Shown here in pieces: positions 1,341 to 27,974 of a DNA stretch of 54,641 nt; the stretch's first letter is position 1; each line of letters starts with the position of its first letter. Under the pieces are notes generated by a model. That model was given only the letters and a program-made list of their open reading frames with translations. It was not told the DNA's origin and did no database searches. The stretch is from positions 1-54,641 of IMG/VR virus record IMGVR_UViG_3300048851_000182, one strand, 5' to 3'. Position numbers and translations under genes: made by a program. The stretch comes from a virus. Taxonomy: Duplodnaviria > Caudoviricetes.

Positions 1341-1370
1341 CAGGAAGGTGCGAAATGTACAAAGTATTGC

Positions 1371-3562: not shown

Positions 3563-4017
3563 GCGCGCCAAGTAATAATAGCTTTTGGATGCTCAGAAGT
3601 AAACATGGCAGGGATGCTTTGTTTAGCTCTCCCGAAAGTATGTGGGAAGCAGCATGTGAGTACTTCGAGTGGTGTGAAGAGAATCCACTGATCGAAATTG
3701 ACTTCGCTGGCAAGGACGCTATTAAGGTCGAAAAGCCTAAAATGAGGCCATTTACAATGCAGGGGCTTTGTAGGTATCTGGATTGCAACACTGAATATTT
3801 CCGTCAGTTCAAAAGTAAGCTCGACGAAGACCCGCAAGGTTTTTCTCGGGTCATTACACGCATAGAGGAAACGATCTACGAACAGAAGTTCACCGGCGCT
3901 GCTGCCGGCTTTTTGAATGCCAATATTATCAGCCGTGATCTTGGCCTGATCGATAAGAAGGATGTCAAGGTTGATACTGATATCATAGTCGAATTCACGG
4001 ATCCGGATGAAGCTTAA
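3559..4017 (+). CDS. terS: Terminase small subunit (P22 gp3-like)
   Basis: N-terminus MSAPSNNSFW..RSKHGR..WEAACEYFEW and C-terminus AAAGFLNANIISRDLGL resemble the gp3 packaging family; directly before the large subunit. Confidence 0.9.
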   Translation: MSAPSNNSFWMLRSKHGRDALFSSPESMWEAACEYFEWCEENPLIEIDFAGKDAIKVEKPKMRPFTMQGLCRYLDCNTEYFRQFKSKLDEDPQGFSRVITRIEETIYEQKFTGAAAGFLNANIISRDLGLIDKKDVKVDTDIIVEFTDPDEA

Positions 4018-8859: not shown

Positions 8860-9576
8860 ATGCATCCACAATTAACCTACGCCCTCGAACGCGGATACGT
8901 TGAGCCAGTCTTGATGCCCGATGGCACTCAGATGGAAATCAACGGAACCAAATACTTTGTCTTTTCCAATTCAGGTGAGAAGCTGACACAATCTCGCCTT
9001 TACGCATTCTCTGACTTTTTGGATGAATCAAACAGATTTATCGCCAAGAAAGAGGATCTGGAAACAGCAATGTCCTTCATTGAAGAAACACTCGCTGAAG
9101 CGCTCATGGTGGTAAACACCGAGCCGCGCGAATGTCTCGACCTGATCACTCAGGCCAGGTACCGGGCTCAAAGCACGAAGCAGCGTATCCAGATGGGTGC
9201 TAGTATTGAACGCATCTGGGAGATATCAGCGATCTGGTTTTTATCAGAACACGAGGATCCGGAAATCAATGATCCTATCATCAATCGGAAGAAGGTCGCT
9301 GACTTCCAAACCAGGCCGGAGCTTACCGGTTTTTTTCAGAGATGGGCAAAGAACGTATGGAACGCTTTGCCCAAGTACTTAGAGGGCTTTTCGCTGAATG
9401 CTATGAGAGATCTCAATCTGGGGGACATAATTCAGAACCAGATTTTCACTCTATCCAACAGTGGCGCGTTTTCACGGATAAGCAGCGAACTACGCGGCTC
9501 CTTGAACTCGCAAACGGAGACGTGGGCAAATGTGAACGATACCTTCGACTACCTGCATACGAGTTCCACAAATTGA
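8860..9576 (+). CDS. Putative tail assembly chaperone, zero-frame product
   Basis: Directly upstream of the tape measure gene; contains slippery T TTT TTT at 9330-9336. Confidence 0.7.
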   Translation: MHPQLTYALERGYVEPVLMPDGTQMEINGTKYFVFSNSGEKLTQSRLYAFSDFLDESNRFIAKKEDLETAMSFIEETLAEALMVVNTEPRECLDLITQARYRAQSTKQRIQMGASIERIWEISAIWFLSEHEDPEINDPIINRKKVADFQTRPELTGFFQRWAKNVWNALPKYLEGFSLNAMRDLNLGDIIQNQIFTLSNSGAFSRISSELRGSLNSQTETWANVNDTFDYLHTSSTN

Positions 9577-9689
9577 TGTCATACCATCAGGAGCAATACC
9601 GAAAAAAGAATGACCAGAAAAACAAGCGCCAACGGCCAGAACGCAATCATGCTGACTCGCAGTGGCAGACAAGCGAACAAGATGGATAA
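8860..9689 (+). CDS. Tail assembly chaperone, -1 frameshift product (G-T type)
   Basis: A -1 slip at 9330-9336 enters the frame of ORF 9342..9689, which runs up to the tape measure start. Confidence 0.7.
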
Positions 9690-12600
9690 TTGAGGCAACC
9701 TCAAATATTCCTGACATTAATACTCAGTTGGAGCGGTTAATCAAGCTTCAACAAACACAAAACGAACTTACCCAGCAGAACACTACTTCGACTGCTCTGG
9801 CCATTCAACGGCAAAGAGAGCAGATCGAGCAGCTATCTGCCGCCCAAAGCAAGGCTAATACAACAACATCGCAGGGTGTAAAGCAGCAATCCGACATGAT
9901 GGGCGCGCTTCGAAAGGAGTACGACCTGATTTCTCGTCAACTCTCAGGGATTGTCAATCTCGCTGCCGGCGCATGGGCAGTCGGTCAGCTGAAAACTTAC
10001 GTCATGGAAGTGATAAATGCCAAATCCGCTCAGGATGGGTTTGTTGCTTCAATGGAAAAAATGCTTGGTTCCCGCTTAAAGGCGGAAGAGCTGAATGCGA
10101 AATTGATGGACATTGCTTCAAAATCTCCGTTTTCCATCACCCAAATTCAAGATGTAACCAAGCAATTGCAAGGTATGGGGGTTGAGACAAATAAGCTCAT
10201 ACCCTACATCAATGCACTTGGAGATATTGCTGCTATCGTTGGTACCGGCAAGCTGCCATTGATAGCAAAGGCCATGACCGATGTTCAAAACAAAGGTATT
10301 TTGATGGGTGGAGAGATTCGACAGTTTACCGAAAACGGTATTCCTCTGTTTGATCTTCTCGCGAAATCAATGGAAAAGCCACGTGAAGAAGTGGTTAAGC
10401 TTGCAAACGCTCACAAAATTAGCTTTGCAGAAGTTGAACAGGCCATTTTGCAATCGACGCAAAAAGGGGGCTTGTATTACGGTCAAATGTCCGCTCAGGC
10501 GGAGCAGTTGGGCGGTAAGGTTGCCAACCTAGGGGATAAATACACTTTGGCAAAAGCGAAAGTTGGGGATTTCTTCGAAAATGGTATTAAGAAGGGTATC
10601 GAATTTTTGGGCGATCTGATTGATGCAACTATCGGCAGCGCTTCGGCAATCGAACGTTTAACAAAGTATTTCAGTGCGGCATTAACCATGTGGGTTTCTT
10701 ACCGGGCCGCTGTACTTTCCACATCTGCTGCGCTCAAAGCAAATCAGGTTGCTACCCTGGAAGATCTCGCAGCAAAAGAAGCATCCACCCTTGCGACGGT
10801 GACAATGTCAACAGCAACGACTGGATTGAAAACATCATTATCCGGCCTATGGACCGTAATGAAAGCAAATCCTTGGGGTGCATTAATAACTGTTGTCACT
10901 GCTGCAATAGGTGTATATCAGCTTTGGGGTGCTGCATCCACCGAAGTAATAAGTGCGCTCGGCGAGGAAGAGATCAAGCTCAAAAATCAAAAGCAGTTAT
11001 TCAGTGATTCGGTACTATCGGTCATGGCCTTGAAAGAAGGCACCGATAAACGACGGATAGCGATGGAAAACCTGATCAGCAATTATCCCGAATATTTTAG
11101 AGGGATGTCTGCTGAACATACCAACAATGCTACGCTCAACGCAATGCTGATCAAGGTCAATCAGAGTTATGAGCAGCGTATTGGGCTGGCCCGTCAAGCT
11201 TATGTTGTAGGTGAATTGGAGAAGAAGAGAACAGAGTTCTTGCAAGAGGAATTCGAGTTAATGGAGCGCATTAAAAAGCGGTCACCTGAACTCTATGCGC
11301 AATTAGGAGGGGATATCAATAAGTTGATGTCTGAGATTAATAAAGGAGGAAGCGCTTTCCTACAAGATCTCGACAAAAAGGGCGGAGCGCTCCGTAACAT
11401 GTGGGATAACGCTATGAATGGAACAATCGTTAGTTCAGCTGCTAAAATCTCCAAAGGATTAAAGGACATCGATACCCAGATTCAAGCCGCGACCAAAAGT
11501 AGGGAGGTGATAACCCAGAAAGAACACTCTGCTGCTATTGCTGCTGAGAATCAGAGATGGGCTTCGGTTTCTGCTCAGATGAAAAAGGGCACTAAGGAAT
11601 ATGAGGCCGCGCAGGCAGAGCATGAGGAAAAAGTGCGGGAGATGTCTGGGAAAACTAAGGATCTGATATTCAAAGTCGAGGGCGAAAAGGCAGCAAAAAA
11701 GAAATCGACCTTGGAGCTTAGTCTGGAAAATGATGTCAAGGAATTGAAGTCAGTCCAGCAGACTTACGAAAATAAATTAAAGCTGGCAACCGCAGAAGAG
11801 GCGCTGGACATTGAGCGAGCGAACCGAATGATTAAGAACAAGCAAGCTTTGGAGGATCGCATTGATTCCATTCATACTCAGTACGCTTTGAAACGAGCCA
11901 AAATAATGGCTGAGGAGATCGACAAGCGTATCGATTACGATATGAAGGACTTAAAAGCTGCCGAGGATGCATCTAAAAAAGCTATTGCAATCAAAGAAAA
12001 GGAGGCCGGGGTTTTTGAGGATTTGTCCAATTACATTACGGGTTTGCAGCAAAAGCAAAACGATGAACGGATTAAGGATTATCACGAGGCGAGTAAAAAA
12101 ATGCTGGAAATCGCGCAGGACTTTTACAAAATCTCAGTGCAATACGGAGCGAGAGAGGCGGAGGATAACAAGAAAATTTGGGAGACCAAAGAAAACGCCG
12201 TTCTCCGGTACTGGCAGAAGATCCGCGAGACCGAATTAAAGGAGCTGAATGAGGCATATTTGAGGCAGGTCGCTCACAATGAGAAAATGTTGCAGCTATA
12301 CGGAGGTGACAGCTCAGAGTATACGGACGGTGTTTCCAACCTCATTGCAATTCGAGGCAAGATCAAACAGGTTGAAATGGAGTCCGCTGATTCAAGTAAG
12401 CGAATGGGCGAAAACTCCAAAGCGGCACTCGCGGCTGTTATTCAAGCCTTGTACGGGATTTTCGAGGCAGTAATGGAGCTTGTCATTGCTGGAAAGGAGC
12501 AGATCGTTGACGCTTACAGCGGTGCAATTGATGCAATGGACGGACTTGCGGATGCGAACCGCGCTGCAATGGACGATATTATCAGCGATACCACCTTGAC

Positions 12601-14365
12601 CTATGATGAGTTAGAGGTTAAGTTAACAGAGTCCATAAACCGGCAAAAGGAAATTCTAGCGAGCTCTCAGTCGTTCGCAGAATTGAGGAGACGGGCCCAA
12701 GAGGAATTGAGCCAAGTTCAATCGGATATGGAGTCGGTCAGCAAAGGCGTTGGTGCTGTTACCAGCTTCTTAAATGGAAACATTGGGGACACCTTCTCAA
12801 ACTTGGTAGGGATGGTGATTGAGTGGGGAACTCATACTAAGAGAATATTCTACGAAAGTCAGGCAGAGCACCATAAAATGCTATCCGACCGATGGCAGGA
12901 TACTATTGATTTGCTTAACGCTGAAATGGCGGCAGAGGAAGCTCTTTATCAAAAGAAAATCGAGCTTTGGGATAAGGAGCTTGAAGAATTCAGACGGGTA
13001 ACGAACGAGAAAACCGCTGCTTTTCAGGAATCCGCTAATTCTCAAAAAGAAATAGAGAAAAACCTGAATGAGGCAAAAAATACATACCTGCAAGAAAACG
13101 ACAACTATCGAAATCAGCTGCTTGTAGCTGGTCACGAACGCAGGGTTGCTGATTTGGAGCGTCAACGTGATATGCTACTTCACGAAGCTGCTTTGAAGGG
13201 AGCTACGGAAAAGGAAAAAGCAGATATCACCCTTGCATTTGCAAACCTGATTCAGCAAGAAGAGGAGAAATTTGCTTTTGCCAAAACTCAGCGAGAAATA
13301 TACGATTTGGAGCAATCCAAAAACCGTATGGTTCAGATGGCAACAGAGCGAGGCGCAACCGCTCAACAGATAGCCGAGATCGAACAGAAGTATGATCAGC
13401 AGATCTTTGAGCTGAAAACCAAATTAGGTAAAGATTCTCTGACCGAAAGCGAGAAAAACAAGCTTGCACAGGAAGAGTTAAAAGCTCAGGAGTCGGATAA
13501 TATCAAATCGATCGAGACGCTTCTAAATGAGGACATTAAGAAGCTGAAAGACGAATTAAAAGCAAAAGAGCAGGAAGTTTCAGACGCGAAACAGCAGGCT
13601 CAGAAAGATTATGCAGAATACGTTCGGAATGCCAATGCGCAGATTTTCGAAGCTGAAAAGCAGATGGCGATCCAACAGATCCGCGTAGAAATCGCATTGC
13701 TGAAAGCTAAAAAGAACTGGTTCAACGGAGGTAAAATTCGTGAGGCAATCGGAGATCTGGAAAACGCAATTAATGAAATCAGCGGGTACGGAAACCCCTA
13801 CGGGTACGTAACTCCCGATAAGCAGTACACCCCTGATAACCCGAGAGGCCAGCAAGATCCTGACGGAGACGGAGAAGGAAATGGCGGCGGCGGTGGTGGA
13901 GGTGGCGGCGGTGGAGATAGGCCTGACAGACCAGGTGATAGACCTAGGCCGCTCTTCCATGGAGTTCCCTGGCTGGATTTGGGAAGCAATCCCGATGGCA
14001 TTGACACTATCCCAATCAGAGCCCACAAGGGGGAAAGGATAGTACAAACCTATCTAAACCAATTCTTAGGTCCGGACACCTCAAATGAGCAGCTTGTCCA
14101 CGGATATCTGCAGTACGCCAACTTCATGGACCGGCTTCCCAGCACCCAGATACCAGAATCTATTCCAATGGTTTTACCTGACTTCTCATACGCAAGCCAG
14201 AATGTCATTTCAATGGATCGGCTTGAAACTGAAATTCGAGAAATGCGCAAGGTTTTCGAAAAGAAATCTCTGCTCAATGTCAACATCGACGGAAATGCTG
14301 TGAGCATCTCCGAACAATGGGAACAGCACAAAGTCAATTATTACGACACTATCTTCAAAAAGTAA
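9662..14365 (+). CDS. Tail tape measure protein
   Basis: 1567 aa, helical. N-terminal tape-measure domain (ASKSPFS..ALGDIAA..EIRQFTENGIP), ANPWGALI motif, C-terminal DTIPIRAHKGERIV. Confidence 0.93.
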   Translation: MADKRTRWIIEATSNIPDINTQLERLIKLQQTQNELTQQNTTSTALAIQRQREQIEQLSAAQSKANTTTSQGVKQQSDMMGALRKEYDLISRQLSGIVNLAAGAWAVGQLKTYVMEVINAKSAQDGFVASMEKMLGSRLKAEELNAKLMDIASKSPFSITQIQDVTKQLQGMGVETNKLIPYINALGDIAAIVGTGKLPLIAKAMTDVQNKGILMGGEIRQFTENGIPLFDLLAKSMEKPREEVVKLANAHKISFAEVEQAILQSTQKGGLYYGQMSAQAEQLGGKVANLGDKYTLAKAKVGDFFENGIKKGIEFLGDLIDATIGSASAIERLTKYFSAALTMWVSYRAAVLSTSAALKANQVATLEDLAAKEASTLATVTMSTATTGLKTSLSGLWTVMKANPWGALITVVTAAIGVYQLWGAASTEVISALGEEEIKLKNQKQLFSDSVLSVMALKEGTDKRRIAMENLISNYPEYFRGMSAEHTNNATLNAMLIKVNQSYEQRIGLARQAYVVGELEKKRTEFLQEEFELMERIKKRSPELYAQLGGDINKLMSEINKGGSAFLQDLDKKGGALRNMWDNAMNGTIVSSAAKISKGLKDIDTQIQAATKSREVITQKEHSAAIAAENQRWASVSAQMKKGTKEYEAAQAEHEEKVREMSGKTKDLIFKVEGEKAAKKKSTLELSLENDVKELKSVQQTYENKLKLATAEEALDIERANRMIKNKQALEDRIDSIHTQYALKRAKIMAEEIDKRIDYDMKDLKAAEDASKKAIAIKEKEAGVFEDLSNYITGLQQKQNDERIKDYHEASKKMLEIAQDFYKISVQYGAREAEDNKKIWETKENAVLRYWQKIRETELKELNEAYLRQVAHNEKMLQLYGGDSSEYTDGVSNLIAIRGKIKQVEMESADSSKRMGENSKAALAAVIQALYGIFEAVMELVIAGKEQIVDAYSGAIDAMDGLADANRAAMDDIISDTTLTYDELEVKLTESINRQKEILASSQSFAELRRRAQEELSQVQSDMESVSKGVGAVTSFLNGNIGDTFSNLVGMVIEWGTHTKRIFYESQAEHHKMLSDRWQDTIDLLNAEMAAEEALYQKKIELWDKELEEFRRVTNEKTAAFQESANSQKEIEKNLNEAKNTYLQENDNYRNQLLVAGHERRVADLERQRDMLLHEAALKGATEKEKADITLAFANLIQQEEEKFAFAKTQREIYDLEQSKNRMVQMATERGATAQQIAEIEQKYDQQIFELKTKLGKDSLTESEKNKLAQEELKAQESDNIKSIETLLNEDIKKLKDELKAKEQEVSDAKQQAQKDYAEYVRNANAQIFEAEKQMAIQQIRVEIALLKAKKNWFNGGKIREAIGDLENAINEISGYGNPYGYVTPDKQYTPDNPRGQQDPDGDGEGNGGGGGGGGGGGDRPDRPGDRPRPLFHGVPWLDLGSNPDGIDTIPIRAHKGERIVQTYLNQFLGPDTSNEQLVHGYLQYANFMDRLPSTQIPESIPMVLPDFSYASQNVISMDRLETEIREMRKVFEKKSLLNVNIDGNAVSISEQWEQHKVNYYDTIFKK

Positions 14366-14621: not shown

Positions 14622-16432
14622 TGTTCTATTTAAACGGTACCCAGATCGACGAGCCGGCAGGATGGTCTGGCGTATATTGGACAAGGGTAAGGCATCCGGA
14701 TTACTTCGGTATTTGGCGCCATCGTACAGCGAAGGTGATGGGAGTCGGGGAGGTTGGATTTGATGGCGAGGCGCGGTACCTTCTACAATCCTTGCGTAAA
14801 AAGTACGGCGTGAACGCCGCGGCCTTGTTTGAAGTAAAGGATGGTGGAGAGGTTATATACAGTGCCGAGATTGACTTCGCTGTTTGGAATGACAATGGTC
14901 GGTACTTCAACGTCAGCTTCCGGGATGAAGATATAGAGCTCGACTCCCTTTCAGGTGTGCTCTTCTCCGTAGAGCCCAAAATTCAGATCGAGTTTCCGGA
15001 ACAACCTATCTCTGACGGTCTGGGATATACCGTATCATCGGACTTTATGAACCCATTCTATGCAGGTGCGCGGCATTCGATACCGCTTGCAACCAGTAAA
15101 AGTGGTGAAGGGAATGGGCTCAGTGTTGAAACTCCTGCGAATCAGGAGCCTATTTACCGCAATGGAACGAACAGGAAGTCGGTGTTGCAGCTACAAGGGA
15201 ATATCATTGGTATCTGGCAAGGAACCGGAAATGTTGAGCTGCGCGCCGAAGTGGTTCAGGAAGGTAATGTGATCGATTCTCGCTTAGTGTCCGTGTTCAA
15301 TGCTTCCGGTGGTCAGCAGCACGCACATGTCCTTGAAAACATCGAGATTCAGCCTGGCGCATACCTTCGGCTAATCGTCAGTTCTGGAAGCGGGCTCAAC
15401 GTTAGCTATTCCGCTGAAAGCTATTTGACCATTTACGAAAATGCAGAAACTAAGTCTGCACTGATATGGGGTGTGACCTGGAAGCAGGTTATCGAATCAT
15501 TGCTCGCAAATATGACAGGTGGAAAGGTGCGCCTTTCAAGTACATACTTGTCAAAAGGTGATGGTGCGTCGCGGACTTTGACCAGTGAGCGCAATATGCG
15601 CGGATACCGATCCAATCTCCTGGTATCATTCAAGGCTTTTTGGGACGATATGAACATGATCGACAACTTGGCGTGCTGGCGGCGCGGCAATACTTTACAT
15701 ATCGAAAAGAAGTCAGATATGATTGGCAAGGTCGGATTCAGCCGGATATACGACTTTGAGTCCCTTGTACATTATCCATCACCGTTTTATTCATCATCCT
15801 ACCAGGTCGGCTACAAGAATTGGCAATCCGGTACGTCAGCCGGTCGAGAAGAGTTTTGTACTGAACGCACTTACCTAACTGAGCAGCAGAAAGTCAAAGC
15901 GTCGCGTCCGCTGACAGTCAATACGCTGAGCGCTTCCGGTAAAACCATGGAAGCACTGAGGCGAAACCCCAACTCGGACAAGGCAGATACTGCTCAGGAC
16001 GAAAAGCTGTTTGTAATTGTCGCAGATAAAGCCGGCAGTACTTACGTATCCCGGACTGGTCATGTCGAGGGTGTAATCAGTCCAGCCAATGTTATCAATG
16101 CAGATATATCACCCAGACGAAACCTGCTGCGCTGGATCAACACGCTCGGCGTCAACGGGAGGGCAATGTTCACGGCCGGCACCGGGAATATATCGGCAGT
16201 ATGCTATAATGTCTCCGAAAGTGCTGGCGTGGATCCTTCCCAGATTCCGCAGATTTTCACCGACCGTTCATTATCCATTGAAACTGGCATGACCATGCGA
16301 CAATACTCGGAGCTGGGCGAAGTGATCGAATACCATGATCATGATGGAGAATTAAAGTCTGCCTTGATCATGGAAGACAGTTACAGATTCACAACGGGGA
16401 AAGTTCTCATAAAAGCAATCGAATTACAATGA
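14621..16432 (+). CDS. Putative tail tip / hub protein
   Basis: Beta-rich 603 aa ORF after the tape measure; N-terminal DEPAGW and late ISPRRNLLRW. Confidence 0.6.
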   Translation: MFYLNGTQIDEPAGWSGVYWTRVRHPDYFGIWRHRTAKVMGVGEVGFDGEARYLLQSLRKKYGVNAAALFEVKDGGEVIYSAEIDFAVWNDNGRYFNVSFRDEDIELDSLSGVLFSVEPKIQIEFPEQPISDGLGYTVSSDFMNPFYAGARHSIPLATSKSGEGNGLSVETPANQEPIYRNGTNRKSVLQLQGNIIGIWQGTGNVELRAEVVQEGNVIDSRLVSVFNASGGQQHAHVLENIEIQPGAYLRLIVSSGSGLNVSYSAESYLTIYENAETKSALIWGVTWKQVIESLLANMTGGKVRLSSTYLSKGDGASRTLTSERNMRGYRSNLLVSFKAFWDDMNMIDNLACWRRGNTLHIEKKSDMIGKVGFSRIYDFESLVHYPSPFYSSSYQVGYKNWQSGTSAGREEFCTERTYLTEQQKVKASRPLTVNTLSASGKTMEALRRNPNSDKADTAQDEKLFVIVADKAGSTYVSRTGHVEGVISPANVINADISPRRNLLRWINTLGVNGRAMFTAGTGNISAVCYNVSESAGVDPSQIPQIFTDRSLSIETGMTMRQYSELGEVIEYHDHDGELKSALIMEDSYRFTTGKVLIKAIELQ

Positions 16433-18810
16433 ATATCTATGAGCACGTAATCCGGTTTGCGAAATCGGATGGCAATGATAAAAGCTACTTTGCACCGAAA
16501 GAAAAGCTCGATGCACTCGAAGCACAAAAAGGAGATCTTTGGCGCTGGCTCGCTCCCAAGTCCATTACGCAAGGAATTGATGAGCGGAATCTTGCTGTGG
16601 TGCTGGTTAAGTCAGCTTATTCCCCTCAATGTGGCGATCCGGTCCAGGTCAATGCTGTTCGTTATAAGATCGGCAGGATCCGTCCGCAGGAATCTGAAAA
16701 GTACGTCGAGTTTGCGATCTGGGTTGGCGCGCTTCCATCGGCAGGGAACTGGAAACAGTTTGCTTTAACCAGGGCAAACGGGCAAAAGGTGATCGGCACC
16801 TTCAAGGGACAGCAGGACAACAAAGCCGCATACATGCAAGCCCTTAAAGAGTTTTACGAATCATTTCCATACACGAAGGTGCTTTGCGACGTAGATGGTT
16901 CGAAGATGCGGGTACGCATTTGGGAGAAAGATGGAGTCTTGAAACTTGCCGATGAAGGTTTAACTGTTGGGCTCGGACTTTCCACTGAAACTAATTTGAA
17001 CAGCCCATCAATTACCAGGATCCCGCAAGCTACCCATGTTTATCCTGCCCGCGACAGCTATCACCTGACGGTTGGTCCAAGTGTGCAGGAAGGGAACATA
17101 TATAAACTTGGAACTCGCACGCTGATTGCCGTTGCGGGGGATACGGCGGAATCGATCAAACAAAAGCTTCTAGGAGATGAAGAAAGATACATTGTTGCTA
17201 AGAACGCCGGCGTGAATGTCTCGACCGAAGTCGGGATTCGAAGTATCAGCAATACGAATAGGCTTGCAATTGAAGCCGTATTTGTGGAAACTGACGATGA
17301 GGATGATAATTTTTACATCAGGGTTTCAGGATCCTTGCAGCCTGGTAACATCGTGCAGGTTTCTGCCACGGGTAAGGTGACCAAAAGCTATACAGTACAG
17401 CAGGGAGATTCGACCGAAACTATTGAAAACTACTTTAATTCAGATACAGGTGGATTCTATACTGTTGCATCAGGCGTAATTCCGACCGCGAGTTACTTGC
17501 CAGGCAGCCAAAGAATTCAGAACTCGAACAGCCCAAATCTAACACTGACGAACCTTGAACCTATTGCGTCCTATACCGTAAAGCGCTGGCAAATAATTAT
17601 CGGACCGGATGTCAAGGCAGGTAATGTCTTCAATGTGCTTGACCAGGTGTATGTCGCACAGGACGGCGATAATGATCTAACTGTTGCCGCTGCGCTGGGT
17701 TATGATTCGATATCATTCACTGTCGAAACGGCTCCGACTGAAACGCCGACTGCATTCGCCACAAAAGGATACTTGCACAATGAAAATAATATTGCCGATG
17801 TCACCATTACGGAGGGTCCAAAGCTGGCCCGATCTTCACAGATAATTGTCGATGTTGAGTTTACATGTGACATCGAGCCAGGTACTTACCAGTTGGGCAT
17901 TGTAGACGAGCGAAGCGAAGAACCAGCCTTGATCGCGCTCGGAAATTTCATACGTCTAAAAAGCGAAGCAATTGGCGAGATAATCGAGGTTGCAGACTAT
18001 GGTGACGCTTTCGGGTTTGAATATTACGAAAACGGTTTAACACAACGTTTAAGGCTCCCCGTGTATGTCAATTCTCCAAAACAGCAAACTGAGGAAGAGC
18101 GGGTGGTGAAATTTATGGGCGGCTATCGAAGGACTACCACTAAGATTGAATATGTAAGCCGTCTTGTTACTACCGCTGCACATCTGCCACTGCACGTTAC
18201 GCTCGCCACATTCTTAAAACACGACCACCTGCGCGTTGGAGAAAAGGCTTATTACAATGCTGGCGAATACTCCGAAAATATGCTGATCAGTGGTAGTGAT
18301 CTACGTCAAGCCAGCTGCGATATCACCGAACTAAGTAAAGAGAAAAACAACTTTTCTCGGTATAGATCAAACTATTATCAATCAGGCATTTACGGGGGTT
18401 TTTGCAAAGTTATAGGTGAAGGGCTTAGAGGTAGGTTGCAGCTCTGGCTTCGCAGTTCTGAAATTGTAAGGGAAATAGAAGAATGGCAGCTTCTCAACAC
18501 TGCTTCTTACCAGCTGATAGCTGAAACATTTGACTACGTAAACCTTACCATTTATCATGCCGGATCTCATTATCTAACTGCATTTCTTCCGAAAGGTCAG
18601 CGGATCAGACTGTCCAATTACCTGAAACTGCAAACCGGTGAAAGCTGGATTATCCAGGTTGGTCTTTCCAGCGCCTGCTCTACTGCTCCGGAAATTACTT
18701 ATAAGTGCGAATCCTCTCAACAACACACATTAATTTATGACTGCGAAGCAATTGAAAAGCCAGCTTTCGGTGAGTTTTCAGATGATTTTAGTTCTGATAC
18801 TACTATCTAG
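16429..18810 (+). CDS. Putative tail tip protein with internal repeats and a C-terminal FSDDFSSD motif
   Basis: Three similar V/LxxGN..GD segments; ends FGEFSDDFSSDTTI. Confidence 0.6.
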   Translation: MNIYEHVIRFAKSDGNDKSYFAPKEKLDALEAQKGDLWRWLAPKSITQGIDERNLAVVLVKSAYSPQCGDPVQVNAVRYKIGRIRPQESEKYVEFAIWVGALPSAGNWKQFALTRANGQKVIGTFKGQQDNKAAYMQALKEFYESFPYTKVLCDVDGSKMRVRIWEKDGVLKLADEGLTVGLGLSTETNLNSPSITRIPQATHVYPARDSYHLTVGPSVQEGNIYKLGTRTLIAVAGDTAESIKQKLLGDEERYIVAKNAGVNVSTEVGIRSISNTNRLAIEAVFVETDDEDDNFYIRVSGSLQPGNIVQVSATGKVTKSYTVQQGDSTETIENYFNSDTGGFYTVASGVIPTASYLPGSQRIQNSNSPNLTLTNLEPIASYTVKRWQIIIGPDVKAGNVFNVLDQVYVAQDGDNDLTVAAALGYDSISFTVETAPTETPTAFATKGYLHNENNIADVTITEGPKLARSSQIIVDVEFTCDIEPGTYQLGIVDERSEEPALIALGNFIRLKSEAIGEIIEVADYGDAFGFEYYENGLTQRLRLPVYVNSPKQQTEEERVVKFMGGYRRTTTKIEYVSRLVTTAAHLPLHVTLATFLKHDHLRVGEKAYYNAGEYSENMLISGSDLRQASCDITELSKEKNNFSRYRSNYYQSGIYGGFCKVIGEGLRGRLQLWLRSSEIVREIEEWQLLNTASYQLIAETFDYVNLTIYHAGSHYLTAFLPKGQRIRLSNYLKLQTGESWIIQVGLSSACSTAPEITYKCESSQQHTLIYDCEAIEKPAFGEFSDDFSSDTTI

Positions 18811-21800
18811 CTCCGTTCTAGCCCAATCCAAAACCAGTATTTTGAGGCAAAGGATCAATCAAGATCTTCCTTCGAATAATAGTAAATCAATTACGGCGGC
18901 AAAGCTACGGTCAGTTCTTGGGGCGTCCGCTGATGCGATAGATGAAATTTATAAGACTATTTCGTTAGCCGACAGGCTCGGCGTATATAATGCGACGACT
19001 GGGATAGCGACCATTTCGGAAACCGGCATTACCAAAACACTCGTAGCTGCTCCATCCGACGCAAAAGGGAAGTACTACGATGTAGTTGTCGCGGGCGTCA
19101 ACTCGGTCACCGGCGTGTCTGAAACCTGGAATATTCAGGACCGGATCATTAGTGCAGGAACGAAATGGGATCGGATTCCCTTTGCTATTGGGACTGATGT
19201 AATAGGCCGGTCTCAAATACAATCGTCCGCGGTCACAGCTGACAAAACAGACATGTTCCAGACGGGCAAAAACCGGTTCAATGTCGCTGATCCTGGCAAT
19301 ATACCCAACAAGTACATTAATGAATCGACTGGCGCGGAGGTGAATAGCTCCAGCCACCATACTTCCCACTTTATTCCCGTTACCGCTGGGCAAGAATATA
19401 AAGTATCGTCAGCAGGGACGTCAAAGACAGCAAGGTACATTTGGTACACAAGCGCGAGTGCAAACACGTATATTTCCGGCCAGATAGGCCCTGTTTCGAG
19501 GACTGCACCAGTTGGGGCAACATTTTTGAGGGTGTCTGTCAACGCAACCGAGGTTCCGCCAAGTACTCTCCAAGTCGAGAGTGGCGCAGTTGCCACCGCC
19601 TATGAACCTTATCGGAAGGTACTGACATCAAGTACAGGCATCCCCATCATCGCAAATGCTTCGTTATCGGCAACTGTTTCTGAAACGGCAAATAATCTGT
19701 CTCCGGCAGCGAGGGCTACCGTTGATCAGATGTCCTATTTGAAGGGTAAGAATCTTTTCAATATAGCGGATACGACCAACCTTTCTGATCGGTTCATTAA
19801 TAACACCACGGGTGCAATATCCACGCTCTCAGGTTACCGCACCACCCACTTTATTAAGGTAGGAGCTGGAGTTACAATAACCATGTCTTCAACACAGACC
19901 GGTAGCCTTAGGGTAATATACTATGATGTAAATAAGGATTTTATCAGCGGGGTTGCGGGTACCCAATTGACCAGAACGACCCCGGGAAATACAGAATATA
20001 TTCGTCTTTCGGTTGATGGCGCCACAACATCCTGGGCGAACATGCAAGTTGAAATCGGAGCGTCGGCAACATCTTATGAGCCGTTTGGGTACAAAATTGA
20101 TAAGGTTTCAAACATCCCTATAAGTGCCAAACGAGCCGACTATGCACTTGTGTCCGCATCGACCACATCTCTGGATTCGTCTTTACGTGCGTCGGCAAAG
20201 CAATTATCATATTCGCAAACTCGGAATCTTTTCAATATAGCGGATACGACCAACCTTTCTGATCGGTTCATAAGCGAATCGACAGGCTTATTTTCATCGC
20301 TTACAGGATACAAAACCACGCATTTCATTAAAGTCTCGCCTGGGGTAAATATCTATGTTTCTTCTCCCACTTTCGGCGGCGCGAGACTGATCTACTACAA
20401 TTCAAGTAAAGGATTTATTGGAGGCACCGGTCCTGGTACGGCATGGCCTCGCGTCACCCCGGCATTAACTGAGTATATACGGGTTTCGGTGAACAGTGCC
20501 ACGACAAATTGGGAGAAATTGCAAATTGAGATATCGGCAACAGCAACAGATTATCAGCCATTCGGTTACGTTTTGGATCAAATAGCCGGTGTAAAGGTTT
20601 TCGCGAAGAACTCTTTGCCGGTTAACGCATCAACATCTTTATCTACTCCTGTAATCGCGCCCATTATCTATTTGCCGCGTCAGAAAGAATTGATCGTCTA
20701 CAATGAAAACGTACACCAATATTTTGAATTAGAGGGGAAAGGAAAAACTAGGATTGAACTGAACGGCGAGCCGGCCGGTATGAAAATCCGTGATAGGGGT
20801 ATGAAATTTCAGCAGACGTCAACCACCGCTCCGCTGACAGCATTACCAGGGACAATCCGGATTTACGACAAGGATTACGAAGTTGCTAAAACCGTGAATT
20901 TTACGGTGCAGCCCGTAGATCAAACACTCAATACTGCCAAAACAATTATCAACATAGGGGATTCTTACACCCTACGTTCGACCTTCGTTGACGCAGCTTC
21001 TTCAAGTGCGGCCGCATCGGGTTTAGCATTCTATGGAATGCGTCGTTCTGCTTCAAATGGGGCTACAATTCAAGTGAATTGTGAGGGGCGTGGCGGATGG
21101 CTGATGAGCGACTATCACACCACCAGAACAGATTTATTCTCACCGTTTCGCCAACCCCAGGATCCCTATAAGTATTATGGAAATACTGACTATTGGAAAA
21201 GTGCTAAGGCGGGCCCGTTGATCGGAGAGTTTCCAATTAACTACGACTGGGGCAATATTCAGCCTGGAATTTTGGCATTATATAATGCATCCACGGGTTT
21301 GTTAAACTCACCAGCCGTTAACGACGTGATGTATGTTAATGCAGAATCAGCATACAAGCGATGGAATGGAGCCAGTTGGGAAGCGGTAACGGGTCTGACG
21401 TTCACATTCAATTTTGCTAAATATCGTACTTTGTATGGTACACCACAGGTGGACATCGTTCACATCCTGCTCGGGACCAACGACTTTTCTAGTACAAGAG
21501 CGTCAACCTTCGCAGCTACTTATTCGACATTTAAGAGCAGGATGGATGATGTGATAACTTCATTTAAAGCTGACAATCCTGCTGGGAAATTTATTGTTGG
21601 TATTCCGCCTAGTTCAGGGCGTCAGGGAGGACAAGGTGTTTACGAAACAGAGCGCAGAAAGATTGGCTATTGGCTTCTCGCCAAAGCGTTAATTGCTGAT
21701 TACGGCGGCAGGGAAGCAGAAGGAATTTTGATTGCCGATTATCACTCGACAACTGATAGAGTTTATGGATTTCCTGTCGAAGACGAATTGCCATTTGACG

Positions 21801-21910
21801 GTTACAGTGGGTCAAAGAGAGTTGATTATACCAGTGATCCAGTGCATGCCTCTGATGGCTTTAAGCAAATGGCTAATATTTATTTTGGTGTAATCCAATC
21901 ATTAAGATAG
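18737..21910 (+). CDS. Putative tail fibre/spike with three tandem beta domains and a C-terminal SGNH hydrolase; N-terminal signal-peptide-like segment
   Basis: Three NxFN...Y(E/Q)P(Y/F) domains; SGNH blocks GDS, GRGG, GTND, DPVH; N-terminus ..MILVLILLSSSVLA|Q. Confidence 0.75.
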   Translation: MTAKQLKSQLSVSFQMILVLILLSSSVLAQSKTSILRQRINQDLPSNNSKSITAAKLRSVLGASADAIDEIYKTISLADRLGVYNATTGIATISETGITKTLVAAPSDAKGKYYDVVVAGVNSVTGVSETWNIQDRIISAGTKWDRIPFAIGTDVIGRSQIQSSAVTADKTDMFQTGKNRFNVADPGNIPNKYINESTGAEVNSSSHHTSHFIPVTAGQEYKVSSAGTSKTARYIWYTSASANTYISGQIGPVSRTAPVGATFLRVSVNATEVPPSTLQVESGAVATAYEPYRKVLTSSTGIPIIANASLSATVSETANNLSPAARATVDQMSYLKGKNLFNIADTTNLSDRFINNTTGAISTLSGYRTTHFIKVGAGVTITMSSTQTGSLRVIYYDVNKDFISGVAGTQLTRTTPGNTEYIRLSVDGATTSWANMQVEIGASATSYEPFGYKIDKVSNIPISAKRADYALVSASTTSLDSSLRASAKQLSYSQTRNLFNIADTTNLSDRFISESTGLFSSLTGYKTTHFIKVSPGVNIYVSSPTFGGARLIYYNSSKGFIGGTGPGTAWPRVTPALTEYIRVSVNSATTNWEKLQIEISATATDYQPFGYVLDQIAGVKVFAKNSLPVNASTSLSTPVIAPIIYLPRQKELIVYNENVHQYFELEGKGKTRIELNGEPAGMKIRDRGMKFQQTSTTAPLTALPGTIRIYDKDYEVAKTVNFTVQPVDQTLNTAKTIINIGDSYTLRSTFVDAASSSAAASGLAFYGMRRSASNGATIQVNCEGRGGWLMSDYHTTRTDLFSPFRQPQDPYKYYGNTDYWKSAKAGPLIGEFPINYDWGNIQPGILALYNASTGLLNSPAVNDVMYVNAESAYKRWNGASWEAVTGLTFTFNFAKYRTLYGTPQVDIVHILLGTNDFSSTRASTFAATYSTFKSRMDDVITSFKADNPAGKFIVGIPPSSGRQGGQGVYETERRKIGYWLLAKALIADYGGREAEGILIADYHSTTDRVYGFPVEDELPFDGYSGSKRVDYTSDPVHASDGFKQMANIYFGVIQSLR
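19750..20271 (+). repeat. Exact 48-bp direct repeat (19750-19797 and 20224-20271)
   Basis: GAATCTTTTCAATATAGCGGATACGACCAACCTTTCTGATCGGTTCAT occurs twice, 474 bp apart and in frame. Confidence 0.9.
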
Positions 21911-23101: not shown

Positions 23102-24028
23102 ATGCTAGGTTATTTTTTAACATCGAAGGGGGTTGATTTGCAACCACTTCACAACTATAACAGCGAGGCAGATCAAACCCTGGGGGCGTACATCGCGCTC
23201 GGTATGGTGGACGCTTCTGTTGGATTGAGACTCGGCGGCACTTATGAGGCCGAAATAGTCACGGCTGGAAACATTGTTACCATCATCAAGGAGCTTTGTT
23301 TGACTGATCAGGCGTATTTCTTCGGAAGCTCTGACATTATTGGGCAGGAAGCTGACCCTGCTATCACTGCTGAGGCGGAAGCTTTTGGGCATATTGCCGG
23401 CCCTCGCCTGACTGATACATTGCTGGGAACTGTCGTTTGGAGGTTGAACCATGCTTACAGCGCACGTAAGTTTTTAAATATGCTGATGGCAAACCGAGAG
23501 TTTGACTTCTTCATGTTTACCAACAACAGTGTCGAAGCGGCGTACTACGATGATCACGGAATCGCTTATTCTGCCATCTCCAATGCGAAAGGTAATAAAG
23601 ATGCGAAGATCACAGGCGGGTTTACTTCTATGTACAAATCGTTTCAGGGCTTCCTCCCTGTTGAATTGGGGATCGTTCAAGCTTCATTGAAAAACGACGT
23701 AAAATTTGTGATGGCCGAGCCGGTGGCCACCGAGGATATCGTTGTTGCCACATGCTCGACACTTGGTCGCAAAAAGTACACAAAGTTGATTGCCGAATCC
23801 GGCACTTTGACTTTTGCAACTAATCCGGCTAATGCTTGTGTGGACTGGTATTGCACCCAAGTCGATGGATCTGCTTTGCCAGCTGCTGGGAAAGGTTCAT
23901 TCAACTCTGGTACTGCAACATTAACACTACCGAATACCCTTGCGGCTGGCAAGTATATCTATAAGATATTCTGCGTAAACGCAACGGGTGTGAAAGGTGA
24001 ACTCTTTGTTGAAGTACTGGTAAACTAA
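23102..24028 (+). CDS. Putative major tail (tube) protein with C-terminal Ig-like domain
   Basis: 308 aa, beta-rich, ends with Ig-like TATLTLP..AGKYIYKIFCVNATG. No better tube candidate in the window; assignment is inferred. Confidence 0.5.
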   Translation: MLGYFLTSKGVDLQPLHNYNSEADQTLGAYIALGMVDASVGLRLGGTYEAEIVTAGNIVTIIKELCLTDQAYFFGSSDIIGQEADPAITAEAEAFGHIAGPRLTDTLLGTVVWRLNHAYSARKFLNMLMANREFDFFMFTNNSVEAAYYDDHGIAYSAISNAKGNKDAKITGGFTSMYKSFQGFLPVELGIVQASLKNDVKFVMAEPVATEDIVVATCSTLGRKKYTKLIAESGTLTFATNPANACVDWYCTQVDGSALPAAGKGSFNSGTATLTLPNTLAAGKYIYKIFCVNATGVKGELFVEVLVN

Positions 24029-24084
24029 TACAGCTATCGTTCGGAGATGATTTCGGCGACGATTTCGGAGACTGAGCGATAGCT
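24019..24084 (+). promoter_or_regulatory. Candidate -1 frameshift signal (G GTA AAC plus 13-bp stem-loop)
   Basis: Heptamer 24019-24025 just before the stop, 6-nt spacer, stem 24032-24044/24072-24084. The -1 frame reads LIQLSFGDDFGDDFGD to TGA at 24075. Confidence 0.6.
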
Positions 24085-24109
24085 TCACACGAATTATACA
24101 CGCACTGAA

Positions 24110-26050
24110 ATGTTGGATTTTCAACGAGATATCGCACCGTATCTGATCAAGTATGATACAGAGCTTCCGGATAAGAAGCATCTGCATAAATACTATGACC
24201 AGTCGGTGGCGCACCAAAAACTTGTTGAAAGTGTATTCGGCGATGACTTCCCGGACTTTTTGAAGGTTGAAAGGCCGAAAGAAAAGGAGAAAAAGAGCCA
24301 CTCCAAATTCAGGGCTGCGATCTACAAAGCAATTACCAAGCCTTTCCGCAGAAGGCTGATCAGGACGATTTCGGCAATCCGGAATGCAGATGATTTCACG
24401 ATCGAATTTCCGTCAGTCGACACTTCCATGCCTTTCGAGGATACTCTGAGTTATTACACCTCTGAAAACTTCGGGGCATGGAAGTCACTTGAACAATGGT
24501 TCTGGGAGCAGGGTATTCAACATTTCGTTGATGATCCGAACGCCTGCGCGGTTTTGCTGCCTACAATACCGGAAGATCCTACAAGTTTCCGAGAAGTAAC
24601 TCCAATATGGGCGCTCTCAAAACAGGTGTGGTACTACGGGGAAGGTGAAAAGGCGGTGATCTGCGCTCAAAAGAAAAGCAATGTTCGTGTTAATGGAAAG
24701 CTCGAAAACAAAGGCCTGGTCTTGTATTTCTTTGACCGCGAAAGCTATTGCATTGCTCAGCAGGTTTCCGTTTCCGGTGGAAAGACTGAATGGGACGTGA
24801 TGGGCTTGCAGGCGATGCAAGACGAAACCGGTCAGTTCACCGGATATGCCGAAAACTTCCCGCTCCATTATTTCCGGTCTATGCCTGTTTTCAAGGTTGG
24901 CTCATTGATCAGACAGACATCTGAGGATGGAGTTTTCAAGCTTTTCGAGAGCTATGTTTCTGATGCAATCCCTGCATTGAAATCTGTTTTGCAGCGAGCG
25001 TCCGACATCGACATTGAAGCGCTTCTTCATACCGGATCACTGGAATGGCAGTATGTTACCAACAAATGTAACAGCTGCTCAGGTAGTGGGCACATCAAGA
25101 GCTTTTCTGAAACCAAAGCAGGCAGAAAACGGGAAACCACTTCCAAGTGTACCAAGTGTGGCGGCGCTGGCTATGAGATTTTTGATTCCAATCTGGAAAA
25201 GATCCTGATTTCTCCACCCGTGCAAAGCAGCTTTGACGATGATACCAAACCCGTAACGTTGCCAACGCCGCCTGCCGGGATGATCGAGCGATCTCCAAAT
25301 GCAATCAAAGAGTTCAGGGAAGAGTATAAGCGGAACATGATCGAAGCTTATCAGGCAATTGGTCTAGGCCATATTGCTGATCAGATTTTCATGTCAACAT
25401 CCGGCACATCGAAGCGCTATGACCGTGATGAAGGCGAGAAGATGATCATGGATACTTCGCGGCATATTGTCGAGAGGCTCCTGCACCCAATCTATTCAGC
25501 CACTGATGCAATTCGGTACGGGCCCATTGGAAAGCAAGGCGAACAGGTACCCAACATTGTTAGCCCTAAAAGGTTTGATATCAGCAGCATCGACATGACT
25601 CGGGAGGAGTTGAACGACGCTATGACTAACAACTATTCCGAAGAATTGAAGGACGCATTGCAAATGAAGTACCTGGATCAGACCACTGGCAAGGACTCGA
25701 ACGAGTACAAGGCTTTCCGGGTGAAAATGCGTCTGGATCCGCACCGAAACAAGAATGATGAAACCAAGTCTTTCCTGCTTTCGCAGGCTTATCTGACTAT
25801 GGATAGGACCAGTGATGAGTTCAGTAAGACAATTGAGCAGCTCCAATTCTCCATCAACTTTGAGACTGTGCTTCGTGATGTGGTTCTTGGTAACGATGAC
25901 TTTTTTAAGCTTCCGGTTGATAAGCAATACGAGTTGATGATCAAGGAGAATAAAAAGTACTTCTCTGTCAAACCTGCTGGTCAGCCAATCGAAATGAGCA
26001 CACTCGCGCCGCTGGTTAACGCCAAGGACATTAACCAGATGAACGAATAA
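24110..26050 (+). CDS. Putative portal protein with a CxxCxGxG zinc-finger insertion
   Basis: 646 aa, before minor head, scaffold and capsid genes; portal-like TSGTSKRYDR segment; CNSCSGSG and CTKCGGAG. Confidence 0.7.
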   Translation: MLDFQRDIAPYLIKYDTELPDKKHLHKYYDQSVAHQKLVESVFGDDFPDFLKVERPKEKEKKSHSKFRAAIYKAITKPFRRRLIRTISAIRNADDFTIEFPSVDTSMPFEDTLSYYTSENFGAWKSLEQWFWEQGIQHFVDDPNACAVLLPTIPEDPTSFREVTPIWALSKQVWYYGEGEKAVICAQKKSNVRVNGKLENKGLVLYFFDRESYCIAQQVSVSGGKTEWDVMGLQAMQDETGQFTGYAENFPLHYFRSMPVFKVGSLIRQTSEDGVFKLFESYVSDAIPALKSVLQRASDIDIEALLHTGSLEWQYVTNKCNSCSGSGHIKSFSETKAGRKRETTSKCTKCGGAGYEIFDSNLEKILISPPVQSSFDDDTKPVTLPTPPAGMIERSPNAIKEFREEYKRNMIEAYQAIGLGHIADQIFMSTSGTSKRYDRDEGEKMIMDTSRHIVERLLHPIYSATDAIRYGPIGKQGEQVPNIVSPKRFDISSIDMTREELNDAMTNNYSEELKDALQMKYLDQTTGKDSNEYKAFRVKMRLDPHRNKNDETKSFLLSQAYLTMDRTSDEFSKTIEQLQFSINFETVLRDVVLGNDDFFKLPVDKQYELMIKENKKYFSVKPAGQPIEMSTLAPLVNAKDINQMNE

Positions 26051-27509: not shown

Positions 27510-27974
27510 ATGACTCAGGAAGAAAAAAATGCAGCCGACAAAGCCGCTGCGGATAAAGCAAAAGCCGACCAGGAAGCTGCTGAAAAGGCATTAGCGGACA
27601 AGGATGCCGCTGAAAAAGAAGCTGCGGAGAAAGCGAAGGCCGACAAAGCAAAGGCTGACAAAGAAGCCGCTGATAAAGCAAAGGCCGAAAAGGAAGCAGC
27701 CGAGAAAGCCGCTGTGGAAAAAGCGAAGACGGCAAAAAAGAAAACCCCGGCTGATTTGAAATCATCCGATGATGTGGTGATCGAATTTAAAAATCCGGTT
27801 CACGTCGAAGAAGATGGAGAAAGCTCAGTCAAAAAAGAGAAGATCGTCCAGCACGTGAAATATGCTTTCTGGCAAGGTCTCAAAAAAGACGACAAAGGAA
27901 ATCCGGCATATTCAACCCTGAGAGGCGCAAAGCTGATCGGATATGTCGAGGACGGCAAGGTGATTCAATTTTAA
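27510..27974 (+). CDS. Ala/Lys/Glu-rich repeat protein
   Basis: About 70 aa of KAAADKAKA-type repeats followed by a small globular region. Confidence 0.75.
   Translation: MTQEEKNAADKAAADKAKADQEAAEKALADKDAAEKEAAEKAKADKAKADKEAADKAKAEKEAAEKAAVEKAKTAKKKTPADLKSSDDVVIEFKNPVHVEEDGESSVKKEKIVQHVKYAFWQGLKKDDKGNPAYSTLRGAKLIGYVEDGKVIQF

Follow-up and report, generated by a model that had tools for sequence, protein, structure and literature searches.

The IMG/VR virus record IMGVR_UViG_3300048851_000182 (positions 1 to 54,641, the whole of which we analyzed as a single stretch of 54,641 nucleotides (nt) and refer to as the window) is a prophage, plus flanks, of Dyadobacter, a soil bacterium. One locus in it raises the question of whether the DNA directly behind the stop codon of a tail gene is translated. 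The gene encodes a 308-amino-acid (aa) protein with a predicted tail tube-like fold, and the initial annotation, made from the sequence alone, had proposed that a hidden −1 frameshift appends a short Phe- and Asp-rich tail to this protein. Our comparative data support that proposal, and we consider a genuine −1 frameshift extension likely. The anatomy of the locus is conserved in all six distinct close sequences, the bases of an RNA hairpin covary, synonymous variation is constrained at the shift site, the extension is homologous to the tail of a second tail protein, and the modeled fold of the protein itself is tube-like. These results are presented in turn and then weighed against the alternatives.

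The 3′ end of the gene reads GTA CTG GTA AAC TAA, with the heptamer GGTAAAC abutting the stop codon, exactly as had been read before (coordinates are collected in Table 1). Past this point, the −1 frame is open. From a TGA at 24010-24012 to a TGA at 24073-24075 it comprises twenty codons, STGKLIQLSFGDDFGDDFGD, and the initial annotation was correct both about this open frame and about the lack of an ATG in it; GTG and TTG are absent too. Because the upstream TGA closes the −1 frame, a −1 shift in the window is possible only in the last four codons of the gene. The predicted shifted product is the 308-aa protein followed by the 16 residues LIQLSFGDDFGDDFGD. Tandem Repeats Finder reported a 12-nt repeat at 24040-24072 (2.8 copies, 85% matches), and the copies differ by the synonymous changes GGA/GGC and GAT/GAC that had been taken as a first sign of coding.

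Six distinct close sequences were available for comparison, namely the window, D. alkalitolerans (L001 and its duplicates), Dyadobacter sp. CY347 (L005), D. endophyticus (L007) and the metagenome contigs L002 and L003, and their tube proteins share 71-88% amino-acid identity. A family-level genome search gave matches in 21 of 401 genomes, with five close homologues, all among those already used; homologous DNA had no match in the phage collection, and the viral, metagenome and genome collections returned the loci used here only. In each of the six sequences, G_GTA_AAC was identical and was followed by TAA or TAG, and the −1 frame was exactly 16 codons long, free of insertions and deletions, and closed by TGA or TAA at the same column. 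The peptides of the five further homologues are LVEPTFNGDFDNDFSG, LIEPAFGDDFSDDFMN, LTEPAFGDDFSDYFMT, LTEPAFDDDFGDDFMI and LTQPSFGGDFDDDFMI. Together with that of the window, they give the pattern L-x-[EQ]-[PL]-[AST]-F-x-x-D-F-x-[DN]-[DY]-F-x-x, in which the core F-x-x-D-F-x-[DN]-[DY]-F, with its three Phe and the acidic residues before them, is kept in six of six. None of the sequences has an ATG, GTG or TTG in the −1 frame between heptamer and motif. Conservation in homologues had been set beforehand as a test that could refute the frameshift, and we found the heptamer, the −1 peptide and the covarying stem described below in every close homologue. The recurrence of the same anatomy in five further homologues is more than chance.

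Synonymous variation collapses where the shift site must be. In the amino-acid-conserved columns of the last five codons, the six sequences showed 1.25 of 15 pairwise codon differences, compared with 7.7-9.7 in the five other bins of the last 100 codons. A single codon was kept across the six sequences in 9 of 60 amino-acid-conserved columns, and three of these nine fall within the last four codons. The GTA of the heptamer is a minority codon in these genes (33 of 138 Val codons, 24%). The suppressed variation is not explained by the hairpin, because the hairpin starts downstream of the last five codons.

In all six close sequences, the entire extension is encoded within one long imperfect RNA hairpin. 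The outer stem in the window pairs AGCUAUCGUUCGG (24032-24044) with CUGAGCGAUAGCU (24072-24084) over 13 base pairs (bp) and starts 6 nt past the heptamer; inside it lie an inner helix, interrupted by a U-U/U-U internal loop, and an apical loop of 4 nt. A 13-bp stem-loop had been described at this place, and its size and spacing were borne out, whereas its description as a simple stem-loop was not, as the presumed loop holds a second conserved helix. The anatomy common to the six sequences consists of the outer stem, the inner helix (AUGA/UCAU or CGGAGA/UCUCCG), the U-U/U-U internal loop, UCG/CGA and a small apical loop. The folding energy was −28.1 kcal/mol for 24010-24110 (z-score −3.57) and −26.4 kcal/mol for 24026-24090 (z −5.21), with none of 200 shuffles as good in either case, and it ranged from −18.8 to −28.8 kcal/mol (z −2.9 to −6.3) across the six homologues. 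Between heptamer and main stem there are 6 nt in the window and 7 nt in L001, L003, L005 and L007, and the predicted stem of L002 reaches to 3 nt; the usual spacing of a frameshift stimulator, which had been claimed for the window, is seen in five of the six.

On the alignment, 89.0% of cells were paired, compared with 24.6-42.4% when partners were slid by 1-3 columns. Compensatory change on both sides was found at 8 of 20 hairpin pairs, and the observed covariation was matched by 0 of 500 shuffles on four of five measures and by 11 of 500 on the fifth. The hairpin structure is under selection. The U-U/U-U internal loop also persists in all six sequences, and its mismatches fit a double constraint on RNA and peptide because a Watson-Crick replacement would destroy Asp or Phe codons.

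Several known classes of RNA element were compared with the hairpin. In a test for an intrinsic terminator, the sequence downstream, CACACGAATTATAC, contained no T-run, and a terminator scan made no call. A separate GC-rich hairpin (AGCCCT...AGGGCT) with a T-rich run precedes the downstream gene in four of the six sequences (L001, at about 3985-4010, L003, L005 and L007) and is absent in the window and L002. Rfam returned two sub-threshold small nucleolar RNA matches (E 2.7 and 7.2) and nothing else for the hairpin. We rejected a dispersed RNA element: a covariance model searched over 173,592 bases found the six training elements and one reverse-strand echo. The pattern GATTTCN6GAYTTC had one exact match in the window. 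No RNA run was listed as a carrier of this sequence. Of three sequencing runs assembled into contigs, one is probably where this DNA comes from and two contain a 179-base contig with 7 differences, none listed within the hairpin; these runs are uninformative on expression.

The motif of the extension occurs a second time in the window. A six-frame motif scan located it at the in-frame C-terminus of a 793-aa tail protein, EKPAFGEFSDDF, which ends in IEKPAFGEFSDDFSSDTTI and a stop codon. This tail was kept in 25 of 25 full-length database homologues, 21 of which have the core [ED]FS[DNS]D[FY], and it was conserved with synonymous changes across three Dyadobacter genomes. No significant RNA structure was found at the corresponding stretch (z 0.70, 0.80 and −1.25). 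Because the tail is conserved in frame without RNA structure, the peptide is real. The two tails align as EKPAFGE-FSDDF and -EPAFGDDFSDDF. When the motif pattern was searched in six frames over 264,543 bases, all 22 matches were accounted for by the two proteins (17 in the extension and 5 at C-termini of the 793-aa protein); the extension of the window itself falls outside this pattern, with Leu for Pro. Compared with 2000 shuffles per genome, the local nucleotide alignment of the two segments outscored all of them in two genomes, 1993 in the window and 1868 in a fourth genome. Judged from these alignments, the tube extension appears to be a diverged copy of the conserved tail of the 793-aa protein (KPAFGEFSDDF...), and it retains both the conserved aromatic and acidic positions and the variable positions of that tail.

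Two further ideas about the motif were considered and rejected. Gene conversion between the two tails was dismissed as similarity within genomes was not above that between genomes; the CY347 extension had the best score against every copy of the 793-aa tail, and the co-occurrence of Asn in D. alkalitolerans (FSNDF/FDNDF) is a single case and too little to count. An FGDDF in the 646-aa protein encoded downstream (VFGDDFPDFL, nt 24236) was also discarded as a copy, being a coincidence with a different conserved motif; homologues of the 646-aa protein have VFSDECPDFL, VFSDSFPDFL, VFGGEYPEFL, VFGDAYPEFL and TFADIYPGFL at this site. The N-terminal region of that protein is characterized by the conserved motif VF[GS]xx[FYC]P[DEG]FL, which happens to read FGDDF in the window.

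The identity of the 308-aa protein had been given as tentative. Neither Pfam nor PHROG contained a matching family, and none of its 26 database relatives at E <= 0.001 (191-312 aa) carries a functional name; a profile search of 1.84 billion representatives returned 51 relatives. The C-terminal [VI]N is found in 21 of 25 aligned homologues, and the He_PIG immunoglobulin (Ig) domain was found in 3 of 47 family members. An earlier fold model from a 25-sequence alignment was poor (predicted local distance difference test score (pLDDT) 59.6), and Foldseek matched its Ig domain only. The AlphaFold model from a 47-sequence alignment reached a pLDDT of 87.8 and a predicted template modeling score (pTM) of 0.81. 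With this model, the top Foldseek match in the PDB was the lambda tube protein V (gpV; 7t4f_A, E 4.9e-7), followed by 8iyk_D and 8iyd_A. The lambda gpV chains had E-values of 4.9e-7, 2.0e-6 and 1.2e-5 and template modeling (TM) scores of 0.25-0.30, which are low because the two domains differ in orientation. Further PDB matches were a T5-like tube chain and a mycobacteriophage connector/tube chain. Among the top 13 matches in BFVD, the named ones were 'Major tail protein' (four), 'Tail tube protein' (one) and 'Distal tail protein' (one). VIA-align placed an Ig-like domain at residues 201-308 (Z up to 10.3, root-mean-square deviation 2.5 over 92 residues); its lists were saturated by this domain, and the sole row for the N-terminal domain was 4qxz_B (Z 8.5, residues 28-186).

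Lambda gpV is described as a tube domain with an outward-facing Ig domain (PMC8718954), and the modeled architecture of the 308-aa protein is of this type. The assignment has gained from a confident fold model, for which gpV is the best solved match and named major tail proteins lead the viral models. On these models, the 308-aa protein is a probable, not a proven, major tail (tube) protein.

A number of observations nevertheless weigh against a translated extension. The independent sequences number six. The heptamer does not follow the X_XXY_YYZ rule: its A-site half (A_AAC) fits and its P-site half (G_GUA) does not, and a tandem slip would leave the P-site tRNA-Val with one of three pairs (GUA to GGU). 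This imperfect re-pairing had been entered as a caveat at the outset, and it stands; G_GUA_AAC would act as a −1 site but is not a canonical member. The codon periodicity of the extension is weak. At codon positions 1, 2 and 3, variable columns number 9, 7 and 11 of 15 and summed pairwise differences 64, 64 and 98, and the ratio of synonymous to non-synonymous changes is 39:97, against ratios of 24:104 and 20:112 for the two remaining frames. On its own, codon periodicity would leave the question of translation open. RNA constraint alone could explain part of the conservation of the peptide, as much of the invariant sequence (GAUUUC, UUC) takes part in hairpin pairing as well, and certain non-synonymous changes compensate for one another in the RNA (for example, CGGAGA/UCUCCG in L001). 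The coding test is complicated because GAUUUC self-pairs, and the Asp-Phe codons form both strands of the inner helix.

Moreover, an open frame counts for little on its own: beyond the stop, the zero frame too runs on for at least 13 codons in the three sequences inspected (the window, L001 and L002). The last two residues of the extension are not conserved, and that of the window has Leu where the five others have Pro. None of the 25 aligned homologues of the 308-aa protein carries the tail in frame. Two distant homologues with DNA, L008 (a Persicitalea metagenome-assembled genome, 62% identity) and L009 (Pseudarcicella, 45%), have terminator-like hairpins only, and neither shows the heptamer, the −1 frame or the long hairpin. 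Heptamer and −1 frame are likewise missing from 12 of 12 still more distant homologues whose gene end could be read, which came from the search of 401 genomes of the family. The frameshift feature is confined to one clade. In spite of these points, we regard the translation of the −1 frame as mostly settled, because the synonymous constraint at the shift site is joined by a motif that is the same as the tail of a real protein.

In a rival explanation, the locus is an untranslated RNA element that acts on the transcript behind a strongly expressed structural gene, such as a 3′ stabilizer, a processing site or a weak terminator, and the motif is a relic of an old duplication of the 793-aa gene's 3′ end that was preserved for the helix. 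The covariation of the outer and inner helices reflects real selection on RNA structure, and GAUUUC is quasi-self-complementary, so that Asp-Phe repeats and a helix coincide. The modest third-position excess in the −1 frame, the non-canonical heptamer and the plain terminator-like hairpins of L008 and L009 at the same place point in the same direction. However, an RNA element leaves unexplained the suppressed synonymous sites in the last five codons, upstream of the hairpin, as well as the heptamer that always abuts the stop, the absence of insertions and deletions and the fixed position of the TGA or TAA in six sequences. A role as a terminator is at odds with the missing T-run and with the separate terminator-like hairpin that four of the six homologues already possess. 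The source segment, at the end of the 793-aa gene, shows no tendency to fold into a hairpin, and dispersed copies were absent from the 173,592 bases searched. Additionally, the helix was built while the frame, the three Phe and the acidic residues were kept, which argues for selection on both levels. We consider a purely untranslated element unlikely.

Two further explanations fare worse. The conserved −1 frame might encode a separately translated micropeptide of about 14-18 residues, produced by a start or restart after the TAA, and an ATA or ATC near the beginning of the frame in two of six sequences (the window and L002) could be cited in its favor. However, ATG, GTG and TTG are lacking in all six, the near-cognate codons are not conserved, and the motif's homologue forms the C-terminal end of a large virion protein, as expected of an appended tail rather than a free peptide; we regard a micropeptide as very improbable. 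Equally little credence is due to a chance open frame in a repeat-containing spacer or a protein-binding site on the DNA made of 12-bp direct repeats. The 12-nt tandem repeat is indeed present, and short open frames are not rare in T/G/A-rich sequence, but the compensatory changes indicate a folded single strand rather than a duplex site, the same pattern occurs in six diverged sequences, and the homology to the tail of a real protein far exceeds what chance would give. This last explanation is largely refuted by the covariation, motif-pattern and nucleotide-alignment results.

Returning to the frameshift, we provide a putative mechanism for the production of the extended protein. The majority of ribosomes would stop at the TAA and release the 308-aa protein, and a fraction would slip back by one base on G_GUA_AAC. 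The slip may proceed by either of two routes. Both tRNAs could slip in tandem on the heptamer, with a well-known re-pairing in the A site (AAC to AAA) and a poor one in the P site (GUA to GGU); the hairpin spacing of 6-7 nt in five of six sequences fits the usual geometry of this route. Alternatively, only the peptidyl-tRNA-Asn might slip from AAC to AAA while the stop codon stands unread in the A site, a 'shifty stop' (the term occurs in PMC5009743). The stable hairpin, with its main stem 6-7 nt downstream, would assist the slip. The slipped ribosomes would then read 16 codons inside the hairpin, whose 3′ arm contains the conserved TGA or TAA at which they would terminate. The product would be a tube protein with a flexible tail behind the outward-facing Ig-like domain, and a set minority of tube subunits would carry the same short acidic and aromatic motif as the 793-aa protein. 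We infer both the ribosomal shift and its efficiency. As to origin, the module may have been copied by illegitimate recombination, landed out of frame and come to be expressed via frameshifting; such a scenario is described for Ig domains in PMC5009743.

The function of such a tail may be approached through the 793-aa protein. This protein matched no Pfam or PHROG family, and by its place in the genome would occupy a tail hub/Tal-type position. The simplest reading is that the unstructured acidic and aromatic tail acts as a docking motif for a common partner of the hub-position and tube proteins. The idea of a docking tag was already part of the initial annotation, and it receives indirect support from the same motif being conserved in frame at the end of another tail protein. 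The SGNH-type fibre protein beside the 793-aa gene is a candidate partner. A complex prediction in which residues 30-160 of the corresponding 1057-aa open reading frame (ORF) were paired with the C-terminal 60 residues of the 793-aa protein returned 'no answer' with a score of 0.00 and provides no evidence either way.

The 1057-aa ORF (18737-21910, with possible starts at 18782 (ATG) and 18842 (TTG)) overlaps the C-terminal motif of the 793-aa gene, and its candidate ATG at 18782 falls within the GAT GAT TTT codons. Its residues from about 33 to 148 are conserved in ten homologues of 633-1188 aa that have differing distal parts, and several of the ten are named SGNH/GDSL hydrolases. Fibres that combine an anchor domain with exchangeable distal domains typically show this pattern.

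We speculate further on how these elements could work together, in a scheme that we offer tentatively and hold to be possible rather than probable. A docking motif of the hub would have been copied behind the tube gene and would be delivered to a fixed minority of subunits by a non-canonical slip at the stop codon. The stimulatory hairpin would be built from the motif's own Asp-Phe codons, because GAU-UUC self-pairs, and peptide and stimulator would be co-evolving. The tagged subunits would mimic the docking site of the hub and either recruit the same partner along the tail, with the SGNH-esterase fibre as one example, or distinguish one particular ring of the tube.

Table 1. Coordinates of the proposed recoding locus and of other features in the window
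Feature	Position	Strand	Remarks
tRNA-Ser	1256-1341		
Integrase	1548-2693		
Large terminase	4007-5368		
Tape measure	9662-14365		PHROG 9959 (E 7.4e-36), Pfam TMP_3 (E 1.7e-18)
793-aa tail protein gene	16429-18810	+	Separated from the tape-measure gene by one gene
In-frame C-terminal tail of the 793-aa protein, IEKPAFGEFSDDFSSDTTI and stop	18751-18810	+	Apparent source or sister copy of the motif
Probable major tail (tube)-like gene, 308 aa	23102-24028	+	ORF; modeled N-terminal tube-like domain, followed by an Ig-like domain at the C-terminal end (residues about 201-308)
Proposed −1 shift site G_GTA_AAC	24019-24025	+	Stop TAA at 24026-24028 directly 3′
−1 frame extension, 16 codons (LIQLSFGDDFGDDFGD) and TGA	24025-24075	+	Own start codon absent
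Long imperfect RNA hairpin, proposed frameshift stimulator	24032-24084	+	
646-aa gene, possible portal	24110-26050	+	Starts 25 nt past the hairpin

The module order of the window is unusual. It runs from the integrase and the large terminase through connector-like and tail-like genes, the tape measure and the tail tip to the tube-like gene, and from there to a portal-like gene, a Mu F-like gene and the head genes. The tube-like gene lies past the tail-tip and fibre-like genes and ahead of the 646-aa gene and, unlike genes of the lambda gpV type, is not placed just before the tail chaperone and tape-measure genes. No second candidate for a tube gene was recognized in the window, including by profile comparisons and an Atlas look-up: the profile comparison of the tube-like family with the 176-aa and 335-aa window proteins gave no match, and the look-up of the 176-aa protein yielded weak leads only. 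In L009 as in the six close relatives, the tube-like gene is followed by an ORF whose product starts with MLDF.... In the 12 distant homologues, a start of the form ML(D/S)(F/Y/L)... was found in a downstream frame of six (L026, L031 and L033-L036), L029 and L032 have a different ML or MI start, and the remainder have no such start within the stretch examined; none of the 12 has a recognizable chaperone or tape-measure gene beside the tube-like gene.

A portal role for the 646-aa protein is suggested by its position. The Mu F-like match past its gene is weak (E 0.0038, under the Pfam cut-off). Residues 317-357 of the 646-aa protein form a DnaJ-type CxxCxGxG zinc-finger-like insert (Pfam E 2.9e-5, under the gathering score). 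The stretch 27510-27974, flanked by the Mu F-like gene on one side and the probable capsid genes on the other, encodes in 15/30/45-nt tandem repeats (AEKEAAEKAKADK...) a 154-aa Lys/Ala/Glu-rich protein that is scaffold-like by position.

Two other elements of the window are worth recording. A perfect T_TTT_TTT heptamer at 9330-9336 lies in the X_XXY_YYZ register of a 238-aa ORF (8860-9576) upstream of the tape measure, and the −1 frame around it is open at 9303-9689. It looks like the phage's own tail-assembly-chaperone (G/GT-type) frameshift site, and it is located about 240 nt ahead of the zero-frame stop, which is unusual for this type. At 51663-51876, about 6.5 copies of a 32-34-nt unit, each with a small palindrome, GGTAAAGTTTCTTTACC, form an iteron-like array in a region of minus-strand ORFs (51124-52167 and 52164-54641); this array could be a replication origin.

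If the −1 extension is translated as we propose, it represents a conserved recoding event in phages of Bacteroidota, at a heptamer outside the X_XXY_YYZ rule and directly at a stop codon. The translation signals of Bacteroidota are believed to differ from those of model organisms, and to our knowledge few recoding sites have been described in these bacteria. One stretch of 50 nt would be selected both as a peptide and as the RNA structure that enables the translation of that peptide, and a short linear motif would be added where known minor forms gain whole Ig-type domains. The motif would also offer a testable handle on the anchoring of accessory tail parts in an uncharacterized phage group. 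Gene callers overlook such shifted products, and all 26 database homologues of the 308-aa protein are annotated or predicted to the zero-frame stop only. In the literature on G_GUA_AAC frameshifting, Dyadobacter prophage tails and Bacteroidetes major-tail frameshifts, supplements aside, no description of this extension was found.

Frameshift extensions at the C-termini of phage major tail and coat proteins are established, according to PMC5009743 and PMC8718954. A close parallel is SPP1, in which a 3′ frameshift in the tube gene yields gp17.1 and a minor extended subunit, gp17.1*, in a ratio of 3:1, with the extension facing outward (PMC8718954). The locus described here resembles gp17.1* in that a shift at the 3′ end would give a C-terminally extended minor tube subunit, but the SPP1 extension is a folded FN3 (Ig-like) domain and the one described here has 16 residues. 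The SPP1 shift is a +1 shift. In T7 (10A/10B), T3, Lactobacillus phage A2 and the Listeria phages A118, A500 and PSA, a longer structural product likewise arises when ribosomes shift by −1 (or +1) close to the end of a gene for a major virion protein (PMC5009743). Those extensions comprise tens of residues or whole Ig-like domains and run past the stimulatory structure; in contrast, the extension in the Dyadobacter prophage is a short motif, apparently copied from another tail protein, and lies wholly within the stimulatory hairpin. With lambda G/GT, it would share a conserved low-level −1 shift in a tail gene that fixes the ratio of two products, as described for G/GT in PMC5009743. In lambda, however, the heptamer is canonical, the products are absent from the virion, and the part read after the shift is a folded domain.

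The shift site itself has parallels elsewhere. The gene cdd of Bacillus subtilis reportedly undergoes −1 frameshifting at the non-canonical CGA_AAG, which gives a short C-terminal extension. Its stimulator is an upstream Shine-Dalgarno-like sequence, not a downstream hairpin. The likeness lies in a non-canonical site at which essentially one tRNA slips on A_AAR near a stop, whereas cdd is a cellular enzyme gene. An identical G_GUA_AAC is the proposed ('believed') −1 site of Circulifer tenellus virus 1 (PMC3832450), but this is a eukaryotic double-stranded RNA virus in which the shift produces a fusion of ORF1 and the RNA-dependent RNA polymerase. Overall, the locus departs from the known cases in its 16-residue linear motif, its encoding within its own hairpin, its heptamer outside the X_XXY_YYZ rule at a stop codon, a motif common to a second tail protein, and hosts that belong to the Bacteroidota.

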